Source of the DNA: Escherichia phage vB_EcoM_CUA3
Sequence record: PP410321
Reading direction: 5' to 3' (one strand)
Length of the DNA: 64,000 nt
Shown: piece after piece, positions 35,532 to 37,042 of the stretch
Layout: each line of letters begins with the position of its first letter
Numbering within the stretch: the stretch's first letter is position 1
Program-made: the position numbers and the translations under genes
Notes under the pieces: model-generated
Seen by the model: the letters and a program-made list of their open reading frames with translations, nothing else
Told to the model about the DNA's origin: nothing
The model's database searches: none

Positions 35532-36241
35532 TATGCTCTCCTTCACTCTGTTGTTTTGATAGGTCTATAGTATCATNTTNNNNNNNNNNNNNNNNNNNNN
35601 NNNNNNNNNNNNNNNNNNNNNNNNNNNNNNNNNNNNNNNNNNNNNNNNNNNNNNNNNNNNNNNNNNNNNNNNNNNNNNNNNNNNNNNNNNNNNNNNNNNN
35701 NNNNNNNNNNNNNNNNNNNNNNNNNNNNNNNNNNNNNNNNNNNNNNNNNNNNNNNNNNNNNNNNNNNNNNNNNNNNNNNNNNNNNNNNNNNNNNNNNNNN
35801 NNNNNNNNNNNNNNNNNNNNNNNNNNNNNNNNNNNNNNNNNNNNNNNNNNNNNNNNNNNNNNNNNNNNNNNNNNNNNNNNNNNNNNNNNNNNNNNNNNNN
35901 NNNNNNNNNNNNNNNNNNNNNNNNNNNNNNNNNNNNNNNNNNNNNNNNNNNNNNNNNNNNNNNNNNNNNNNNNNNNNNNNNNNNNNNNNNNNNNNNNNNN
36001 NNNNNNNNNNNNNNNNNNNNNNNNNNNNNNNNNNNNNNNNNNNNNNNNNNNNNNNNNNNNNNNNNNNNNNNNNNNNNNNNNNNNNNNNNNNNNNNNNNNN
36101 NNNNNNNNNNNNNNNNNNNNNNNNNNNNNNNNNNNNNNNNNNNNNNNNNNNNNNNNNNNNNNNNNNNNNNNNNNNNNNNNNNNNNNNNNNNNNNNNNNNN
36201 NNNNNNNNNNNNNNNNNNNNNNNNNNNNNNNNTATTTATAC

Positions 36242-36269
36242 AAAAAAGGCCCAACCTTTCGGAAGGGCC
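36242..36269 (-). terminator. rho-independent terminator at distal end of the tRNA/stable-RNA cluster
   Basis: minus-strand GC-rich hairpin (ggccc...gggcc) followed by UUUUUU. Confidence 0.55.
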
Positions 36270-36289
36270 TTTAACCTAGGGTAACCTTG

Positions 36290-36439
36290 TCGGGGTTCCA
36301 CCTGCTAGGCAAGTGTTCNGTGCGCCGTTTCAGCTGTGAGATAAGGGACTTTAAGATGAACTCATGTACGCCTTAAAGTCGGGTCTTATTCAGGGAACAT
36401 CAGTCCGACGACTTACCGGTAGCGACCCGGTTTCTTGTT
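36290..36439 (-). ncRNA. candidate small stable RNA between tRNA-Arg and terminator
   Basis: about 150 nt with no ORF, bounded by tRNA-Arg 3' end and a terminator; no tRNA cloverleaf found; T4 encodes stable RNAs of unknown function in its tRNA cluster. Confidence 0.25.
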
Positions 36440-36515
36440 TGGTCGAGACAGTAGGGATCGAACCTACGACCCAGGACTTAGAAGGTCCTTGCTCTTCCTT
36501 CTGAGCTATGCCTCG
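36440..36515 (-). tRNA. tRNA-Arg (anticodon UCU)
   Basis: manual cloverleaf: acceptor cgaggca/tgtctcg, D-arm gctc...gagc, anticodon loop cuUCUaa, T-arm gtagg-ttcgatc-cctac, encoded CCA. Confidence 0.8.
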
Positions 36516-36519
36516 TATT

Positions 36520-36594
36520 TGGCGGACATGCATGGATTCGAACCATGGACCAATTGATTAACAGTCAACTGCTCTACCACTGAGCTACACATCC
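36520..36594 (-). tRNA. tRNA-Asn (anticodon GUU)
   Basis: manual cloverleaf: acceptor ggatgtg/catgtcc with G-U pairs, D-arm gctc-agtggta-gagc, anticodon loop cuGUUaa, T-arm catgg-ttcgaat-ccatg, encoded CCA. Confidence 0.75.
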
Positions 36595-36598
36595 AAAT

Positions 36599-36672
36599 TG
36601 GTGGCCCTGGGTGGAATCGAACCACCATCCAGCGATTATGAGTCGCTCGCTTGACCGTCCAGCTACAGGGCC
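36599..36672 (-). tRNA. tRNA with CAU anticodon (Met or lysidine-type Ile)
   Basis: manual cloverleaf: acceptor ggccctg/cagggcc, anticodon stem agcga/tcgct, loop cuCAUaa, T-arm ggtgg-ttcgatt-ccacc, encoded CCA. Confidence 0.75.
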
Positions 36673-37042
36673 TTAATTNNNNNNNNNNNNNNNNNNNNNN
36701 NNNNNNNNNNNNNNNNNNNNNNNNNNNNNNNNNNNNNNNNNNNNNNNNNNNNNNNNNNNNNNNNNNNNNNNNNNNNNNNNNNNNNNNNNNNNNNNNNNNN
36801 NNNNNNNNNNNNNNNNNNNNNNNNNNNNNNNNNNNNNNNNNNNNNNNNNNNNNNNNNNNNNNNNNNNNNNNNNNNNNNNNNNNNNNNNNNNNNNNNNNNN
36901 NNNNNNNNNNNNNNNNNNNNNNNNNNNNNNNNNNNNNNNNNNNNNNNNNNNNNNNNNNNNNNNNNNNNNNNNNNNNNNNNNNNNNNNNNNNNNTCTATTA
37001 TGAAAGGCTCTTTGAGTGAAGAACCTTTGGTAATAGAGGGTA

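Follow-up and report, generated by a model that had tools for sequence, protein, structure and literature searches.

The transfer RNA (tRNA) operon of bacteriophage T4 yields two products that are not tRNAs, and these follow tRNA-Arg in the order rnaD (species 2 or band D RNA; NC_000866 71053-71171, 119 nucleotides [nt]), rnaC (species 1, 139 nt) and terminator. Species 2 RNA has been known since the 1970s and, to our knowledge, has been without a known function for fifty years. Here we compare this arrangement with the tRNA locus in a 64,000-nt stretch of Escherichia phage vB_EcoM_CUA3 (sequence record PP410321), referred to below as the window, and find that the RNA encoded downstream of its tRNA-Arg gene is, by alignment, an ortholog of T4 rnaD. 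The locus as a whole is very probably the end of a Dhakavirus tRNA operon on the minus strand, in which tRNA-Ile2, tRNA-Asn and tRNA-Arg are followed by the rnaD ortholog, a pre-terminator element and a terminator, and from which rnaC is gone.

With respect to the T4 RNAs themselves, RNA sequencing (RNA-seq) has RNAC and RNAD accumulating late in infection, with a Northern blot cited as validation, for which the probes listed are those for RNAC and ssrA (PMC9697503). The literature gives the function of these RNAs as unknown (PMC3014915, PMC9697503, PMC12685909). In phage BW1 evolved on ECOR34, one convergent single-nucleotide polymorphism (SNP) in rnaD was found in 3/3 lines, and virulence (RBG score) rose from 0.17 to 0.98 in the lines carrying it, on this one host only (PMC12685909).

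The feature at the center of this analysis is the following.

36319-36438, minus strand: ortholog of T4 rnaD (species 2 RNA), about 120 nt, called from T4 alignment, blastn, covariance model and covariation, and without an open reading frame (ORF).

Between tRNA-Arg and the terminator lie 169 nt (36439-36271), and no ORF longer than 47 amino acids (aa) was found within 36233-36678, those found overlapping the tRNAs. The alignment to T4 rnaD begins 2 nt past the CCA of tRNA-Arg and runs to ..GGCGCAC, past which the window jumps to the sequence found in T4 on the 3' side of mature rnaC. By blastn against T4 rnaD, the locus shows 96% identity over 52 nt (E 1e-18) and 88% over 26 nt, and the covariance model R1, which was built from 24 sequences, has its sole match in the window at 36320-36441 on the minus strand (122.1 bits, E 1.4e-31). 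Conservation relative to T4 is uneven, with 94% identity in the 5' domain of rnaD and 95% at its 3' end versus 49% in the middle and tip of the long hairpin and 53% in the adjacent tRNA-Arg, which holds the equivalent position in T4. T4 rnaD likewise stands directly after tRNA-Arg(UCU), belongs to the same length class and has the same predicted fold, and the position between the trna.2 side and the e.8 side is common to both phages. The window differs from T4 in that the apical half of its long hairpin is unrelated sequence and in that rnaD, because rnaC is absent, is the last RNA before the terminator. In the unmasked window, a blastn search for an rnaC homolog returned chance-level matches only (the best at 29 bits, E 0.023, in an unrelated place) plus the T-loop of tRNA-Asn, and Dhakavirus relatives are also without rnaC at the tRNA locus.

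An earlier note on this DNA had pointed to about 150 nt of unassigned non-coding sequence that may encode a small stable RNA ahead of a strong terminator. The stable-RNA reading and the terminator both stand, but the segment can be assigned, and it is not one 150-nt RNA, since rnaD, of about 120 nt, is followed by a separate conserved pre-terminator element of 37 nt. The rnaD ortholog is unannotated in every Dhakavirus record examined. At the window locus, no curated Rfam family other than tRNA reached its gathering threshold, and since even T4's own rnaC and rnaD match nothing, Rfam 15 holds a family for neither.

The two T4 RNAs differ in their likeness to tRNA, in that rnaC has a T-arm like that of a tRNA (CCGGGUUCGAAUCCCGG) and its 5' and 3' ends pair, whereas rnaD has neither feature. 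A tRNA-like acceptor end for rnaD was considered and rejected, as ..ACGGCGC is without a 5' partner and the CCA is not conserved (CACC-G, CACA-G, CACC-A). Past ..GCGCAC the window has one masked base, the N at 36319, which is the last base of the predicted rnaD; in Escherichia phage dhaeg this base is C followed by G, so that no CCA is encoded at the 3' end.

The fold predicted for the window begins with an A-rich leader, ACAAGAAA, and a hairpin, HP1 (ACCGG/GUCGCUA/CCGGU), and continues with a closing helix, P1 (CGUCG with CGGCG), the helices P2 and P3 and a long hairpin whose tip varies, ending in ..GGCGCAC[N]. When 26 homologs are folded singly, the minimum-energy structures nearly all follow one plan, consisting of a leader AAGAAR, HP1, a UAAG linker and P1 closing a rod (P2, P3 and the long hairpin), with ..GGCGCAC(C) at the 3' end. 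These single folds recover HP1, P1 and the rod despite at least four unrelated tip sequences among the T4-like phages, and every tip folds as a hairpin. Run on a MAFFT alignment, RNAalifold returned P1, P2 and P3, and 8 of the 15 pairs show compensatory changes. A 23-pair structure has 93.8% of cells paired and changes on both sides in 10/23 pairs on the MAFFT alignment, and 96.2% paired with 11/23 such pairs on a model-fitted alignment of 30 distinct sequences; the covariation scores are 0.252 (at most 0.054 in slid controls) and 0.319 (at most 0.058), respectively, and in the slid controls 32-50% of cells are paired over both alignments (33-50% on the MAFFT alignment). The predicted fold, which covariation supports, consists of a 5' hairpin and a long rod; the rod has an invariant CGUCG/CGGCG helix closing it and carries a hypervariable tip. 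In the Klebsiella phage clade HP1 reads UCAGAA/GACG/UUCUGA instead of CCGG/GUCGCUA/CCGG, and the apical loop AGUUCCCUCAACGAUAAC is conserved in phage LTH01 and in Klebsiella, Enterobacter and Citrobacter phages.

Several observations count against this picture of a folded, T4-type RNA. Folding energies are unremarkable (z = -1.07 for the window and -0.83 for T4, neither significant), so that unusual thermodynamic stability of rnaD was rejected as an argument and the fold rests on comparative evidence. P1 shows no covariation and, being invariant, is uninformative in this respect. In the sequences with CAGCUG, the window included, the minimum-energy fold moves the register of P1 by one base, and pair 45-115 is a U-U mismatch in the window. 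Finally, the ends given for rnaD are carried over from the T4 annotation by homology. A hammerhead reading of the motif CUGAUG...GAAA was also tried and rejected, with no stem I, cleavage site or A9 present and no Rfam ribozyme match at E up to 10.

We observe that rnaD is far more widespread than its annotation. Matches to the 57-nt 5' domain occur in 734 phage records (with an identity of at least 90% in 725), and about 30 distinct homologs come from Tequatro-, Mosig-, Dhaka-, Jiaoda- and Karamvirus and from one Vequintavirinae phage. The distant members are found in that Vequintavirinae phage (LTH01), in Jiaodavirus KpV477 and in Karamvirus EnC15 and AS6, as well as in Citrobacter phage Ursula and contigs of the IMG/VR database. 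In KpV477, EnC15, AS6 and Ursula the rnaD-like element lies between tRNA-Asn or tRNA-Lys and tRNA-Asp, and in LTH01 it directly follows a tRNA with the anticodon CAU; among the homologs examined, rnaD starts 1-10 nt past a tRNA CCA or directly past the stop codon of a coding sequence (CDS). Records of T4-like phages often annotate the rnaC/rnaD region as one to three "hypothetical protein" CDSs, which are probably spurious, and only a few records (T4, T4T, RB3, RB5 and RB33) carry rnaC and rnaD features. A gapped pattern, TCGTCGG..CCCTG..ACGGCG, was also run on IMG/VR and discarded as a search tool, as almost all of its approximately 120 loci were chance matches in GC-rich phages and the covariance model kept only one (L035).

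The surroundings of rnaD are mosaic. In many Tequatro- and Mosigviruses an ORF of 114 aa (RB69ORF150c type, without a Pfam match) is found between tRNA-Arg and rnaD, and its stop codon abuts the rnaD leader, with TAA running directly into GAAACC or GAAGCC (loci L023 361-705, L030 361-705, L026 and L027; L005, L006, L013 and L020). Phage VR26 (L015 1629-2288, minus strand) has a 219-aa ORF with a T5orf172/MUG113 domain (Pfam E 4e-8) that replaces most of rnaD and reads through the leftover rnaD 3' end into the pre-terminator element. VR26 is a natural rnaD knock-out, the cause being probably a mobile endonuclease-like gene.

Two further non-coding segments were seen next to rnaD in relatives. 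WG01-type Dhakaviruses (L009, L010, L011 and L024) have an extra piece of about 70 nt, GAAGACTATTATATAGTCAAGCCGTCGTATGAAGACTGATTACCAGCATTCACCGGCGCAAC, between tRNA-Arg and rnaD, which keeps the rnaD motifs CGUCG, GACUGAU and CGGCGCA, is without the long hairpin and looks like a degenerate tandem copy of rnaD; with an E value of up to 1, the rnaD covariance model matched neither this piece nor Erwinia phage Cronus. In Karamvirus and Citrobacter phage loci (L032 978-1116, the equivalents in L033 and L034, and L035 6906-7045), a second conserved segment, non-coding and about 140 nt long, comes after the rnaD-like RNA, just upstream of tRNA-Asp, and its ends can pair over about 19 bp (AAGUUUACUUUCGGAGUAU with AUACUCACGAAAGUAAAUUU); it shows no similarity to T4 rnaC and no Rfam match.

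Downstream of rnaD, the window carries two more features.

36280-36316, minus strand: conserved pre-terminator element of 37 nt, with the hairpin CACUUGC-CUA-GCAGGUG followed by the invariant single-stranded GAACCCCGACAAGG.
36242-36279, minus strand: small hairpin ACC-CUA-GGU, then the intrinsic terminator AGGCCCUUCCGAAAGGUUGGGCCU with UUUUUU, called from the RNA fold.

The terminator hairpin and its U6 tract occupy 36270-36242, and a simple scanner did not list them because the stem has an internal loop. At the site of the small hairpin, relatives have a GNRA mini-hairpin (GCC-GCAA-GGC, GCC-GAAA-GGC or GCC-GCGA-GGC) together with an equivalent terminator. The element CACUUGCCUAGCAGGUG GAACCCCGACAAGG occurs once in the window and is present in 862 phage records, 121 Klebsiella phages among them, always just upstream of a terminator in the tRNA region. 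Its upstream neighbor changes from phage to phage, being rnaD in the window, rnaC in T4 (where the 37-nt element lies 3' of mature rnaC), a CDS in VR20, VR26 and Jiaodavirus, and a terminated tRNA in Erwinia phage Cronus. All versions have only the small hairpin and the single-stranded 14-mer in common, the GNRA mini-hairpin being optional. Assignment of the trailer and terminator to the Rfam family BjrC68, the best match below threshold, was rejected, since the weak full-length match scored 20.7 bits against a gathering score of 39 and T4, VR26 and Jiaodavirus do not share the outer stem of the alignment. Two nt past the terminator U-tract, at 36233-36240 on the minus strand, stands TATAAATA, which we take to be the T4 late-promoter consensus; the layout is the same in most relatives, and the sequence probably drives the masked downstream gene.

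Two observations concern this part of the locus in other phages. In Klebsiella phage 15882-6-4 (L158), ARAGORN calls a CAU tRNA of the T4 tRNA-Ile type at 1575-1651, right after the element and terminator, where the GenBank record has no feature. Erwinia phage Cronus (NC_055743, L022) has, past a pre-terminator-like element at 2501-2537 and a weak terminator, some 230 nt of non-coding DNA (2560-2800) between two CAU tRNAs. A 16-bp inverted repeat (TTAATTGATAACAGTG ... CACTGTTATCAATTAA) closes this stretch, and a T-arm-like GGGTTCGAGTCCCAG comes after it; the stretch matches neither Rfam nor the rnaD model and may be another structured RNA in a phage tRNA cluster.

The 446 unmasked bases of the locus share 99.3% identity with Escherichia phages dhaeg and dhabil and 97-99% with IME08, JS10 and JS98, and because of this near-identity we assign the window to Dhakavirus, the JS98 type of T4-like phage. 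Gene order at the locus, compared between dhaeg and T4, is as in T4 (gene 1, 57A, 57B, ipI, trna.4-.2, tRNAs, e.8-e.5), and the minus strand of the window reads tRNA-Ile2(CAU), tRNA-Asn(GUU), tRNA-Arg(UCU), rnaD ortholog, pre-terminator element and intrinsic terminator. Masking affects about 20% of the window (149 N runs, 13,011 bases, many runs of 1-4 bases) and, with so many runs, is not particular to the locus. The earlier note had suggested that the masked flanks (35577-36232 and 36679-36994) may hold further tRNAs, a suggestion that gains no support from comparison with JS10, JS98 and IME281, which share the window's spacing, and with dhaeg. The equivalent of 35577-36232 is a hypothetical CDS in dhaeg (207 aa, without a Pfam match) and in JS10 (184 aa, DUF7338). 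The 316-nt N run at 36679-36994 is without a counterpart in dhaeg and has the length of an insertion in JS10, JS98, IME281 and MN04, which in JS10 carries a hypothetical CDS of 88 aa. ARAGORN found no tRNAs beyond the same three in dhaeg, JS10, JS98 and IME281. Given these CDSs and the three ARAGORN calls, further tRNAs within the masked flanks are unlikely, as far as the relatives are a guide.

Across the 64-kb window ARAGORN reports three tRNA genes and no others, each of them on the minus strand.

36440-36515, minus strand: tRNA-Arg (UCU), reading AGA, called by ARAGORN and by Rfam RF00005 (63.8 bits), with encoded CCA.
36520-36594, minus strand: tRNA-Asn (GUU), called by ARAGORN and by Rfam RF00005 (72.6 bits), with encoded CCA.
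36599-36672, minus strand: tRNA with CAU anticodon, most likely tRNA-Ile2, called by ARAGORN (as Met) and by Rfam RF00005 (62.6 bits), with encoded CCA.

The gathering score of RF00005 is 29 bits, so both predictors accept all three cloverleaves, and the genes are separated by spacers of 4 nt each (36516-36519 and 36595-36598), just as had been read from the letters alone. That reading had also set tRNA-Asn outside the T4 set, correctly, as T4 has Gln, Leu, Gly, Pro, Ser, Thr, Ile(CAU) and Arg(UCU). The claim that the cluster differs from that of T4 holds for the extra Asn; the difference is smaller than claimed, because the specificities of Arg-UCU and Ile(CAU) are also T4's. Those two specificities are common to the window, T4 and RB69, which has two tRNAs. 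Published tRNA gene counts are three for JS98 and JS10 and eight for T4 (PMC2993671 Table 2). The same three tRNAs are annotated in sister genomes, with tRNA-Asn annotated in dhaeg, IME08, JS98 and JS10; the three-tRNA cluster is real and already known for the Dhakavirus type.

The CAU tRNA is most likely a lysidine-type tRNA-Ile2 reading AUA, not a tRNA-Met, judging from three features. Its acceptor stem, GGCCCUG/CAGGGCC, provides C4-G69 and C5-G68; its anticodon stem-loop, GCGACUCAUAAUCGC, is identical to the Escherichia coli ileX anticodon arm; and it is near-identical to a gene of phage Lutter annotated as tRNA-Ile-CAT. Ikeuchi et al. reportedly showed in 2005 that the TilS determinants are C4-G69 and C5-G68 together with an ileX-like anticodon stem-loop beside CAU. 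The tRNA is of the E. coli ileX-like lineage, as in phages Lutter and Cronus, and not of the T4/RB69 lineage.

In the 30 unmasked ORFs of the window, which has a GC content of 39%, AGA is used 7.8 times per 1,000 codons (16.6% of Arg), AUA 8.6 times and Asn codons 55.7 times. E. coli uses AGA about 2 and AUA about 4-5 times per 1,000. Taken together with established knowledge, this codon use suggests that the tRNAs would add decoding capacity for AGA, AUA and AAY, codons that would be commoner in the AT-rich phage than in E. coli. Codon supply suits Arg and Ile well and Asn weakly, since Asn codons are not rare in E. coli, and the weak case for tRNA-Asn counts against this explanation of the cluster. 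The anticodon loops match those of the host tRNAs, so there is no sign in them of changes tied to anticodon-nuclease evasion.

Turning to what rnaD might do, the T4 literature and homology suggest that it would be co-transcribed with the tRNAs in one precursor, that the cleavage which matures tRNA-Arg at its 3' end would probably free the 5' end of rnaD, and that the rnaD 3' end would probably be trimmed back to the closing helix P1. It would then persist in folded form, as a 5' hairpin and a rod of about 45 bp closed by CGUCG/CGGCG. Tentatively, and well short of a confident claim, we suggest that rnaD may act in trans, as an RNA that is recognized sequence-specifically, binds protein and has a host-dependent effect. 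It could be a decoy or anti-defense RNA, or a phage RNA that is sensed by host defense, with the near-invariant core as the recognition surface and the hypervariable tip as a fast-evolving module. A more specific form of this idea, which we regard as doubtful, is that rnaD is a host-range RNA, either a decoy against a host defense or nuclease or a molecule sensed by host defense, in which HP1, P1 and the junction would form the recognized surface and the cassette-like tip would evolve under host pressure. If true, this would account for the conservation of the core in more than 700 phages alongside unrelated tips, for dispensability on laboratory hosts and for the convergent SNP that rescues BW1 on ECOR34. 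By our reckoning, the published coordinates (PMC12685909; genome position 164264) would put that SNP near nt 73 of rnaD, in the hairpin tip.

Phage decoy and anti-defense RNAs (RNA anti-CRISPRs, which consist of solitary repeats, pseudo-ToxI antitoxin RNAs and the phage T5 tRNA-Lys, which neutralizes the PARIS defense) are comparable with rnaD only by functional analogy, as structured phage RNAs of small size and host-dependent benefit, and rnaD has a host-specific adaptive SNP (PMC12685909); no sequence or structural match places rnaD among them, nor is there an Rfam CRISPR-DR match. The paper on PARIS does not mention tRNA-Asn. Mimicry of a CRISPR type I-E repeat was rejected, as the hairpin of the repeat is absent and no CRISPR-DR match was obtained at E up to 10 for the window and the Enterobacter phage version. 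The likeness to the E. coli type I-E repeat, which leaves mimicry as no more than a remote idea, consists of GAGUUCCC..GAUAAC in the versions from Klebsiella and Enterobacter phages and of UGUUCCC..AGAAACGG in the T4-like ones.

VR26 shows that rnaD is dispensable for viability, which counts against the overall reading. The placement of the BW1 SNP on the rnaD structure is uncertain, and the proposal of a protein-binding RNA that acts in trans is a guess.

The alternative that survives best is that rnaD works in cis only, as a structured spacer that steers or protects processing of the tRNA precursor, for instance by blocking 3' exonucleases or by positioning cuts of RNase E, RNase P or RNase III, with the stable RNA as a by-product. 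T4 rnaD is made from the tRNA precursor, and across the family rnaD is placed, almost without exception, within a tRNA cluster or at its end, starting 1-10 nt past a CCA or at a CDS stop, all of which fits such a spacer, as does its dispensability in VR26. A pure spacer, however, should drift, and the core is 94-95% identical to that of T4 versus 53% for the adjacent tRNA. Moreover, rnaD is kept in RB69 and phage Lutter although a CDS separates it from the tRNAs. A single convergent SNP raised the virulence of BW1 on ECOR34, and on that host only (PMC12685909). All three observations favor an independent role for rnaD over that of a spacer, and we regard the cis-only alternative as unlikely.

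Less probable still is that rnaD, or the pre-terminator element with the terminator, is a small RNA (sRNA) that base-pairs with host or phage mRNAs, either through UUCCCU motifs pairing with Shine-Dalgarno sequences or through the single-stranded GAACCCCGACAAGG by the terminator, in the manner of sRNAs derived from 3' ends. A UYCCCU motif is indeed conserved in all clades, with two copies in the versions from Klebsiella and Enterobacter phages, and the invariant 14-mer, present in 862 phage records, stands between hairpins just upstream of a U-tailed terminator. Yet complements of the 14-mer in the window are not above chance (one non-self match, with three mismatches, versus 2.2 expected in shuffles), there is no known target, and a 2010 review lists no functionally characterized trans-acting sRNA in T4 (PMC3014915).

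Finally, it is very improbable that rnaD is a decayed relic (a tRNA pseudogene, mobile-element remnant or homing-endonuclease target) conserved by recombination or hitch-hiking with tRNAs, for although the region is mosaic, with ORFs inserted between tRNA and rnaD, a degenerate rnaD-like piece in WG01-type phages, the T5orf172 ORF of VR26 and SegB homing in the T4 tRNA region (PMC2330249), compensatory base changes uphold four helices, at least five genera of Tevenvirinae, and one phage of Vequintavirinae, have kept rnaD, a discrete RNA builds up from the T4 homolog (PMC9697503), and neither ARAGORN nor the Rfam tRNA model recognizes rnaD.

The tRNAs of this locus are routine and already annotated in sister phages, and its value lies in the RNA behind them. 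The known family of T4 rnaD gains a new, unannotated member in the RNA of the window, which is not a new kind of system. In most phage records examined rnaD is unannotated, often hidden under a spurious "hypothetical protein," and it is without an Rfam family. What is new here is the recognition of rnaD as a widespread family with a fold supported by covariation and with an invariant core set against a swappable tip. Together with the published adaptive SNP, the family and its fold lead to concrete mutants to build and to an RNA model for annotation. The interest of the family would rise considerably if it were true that rnaD is a host-range or anti-defense RNA.

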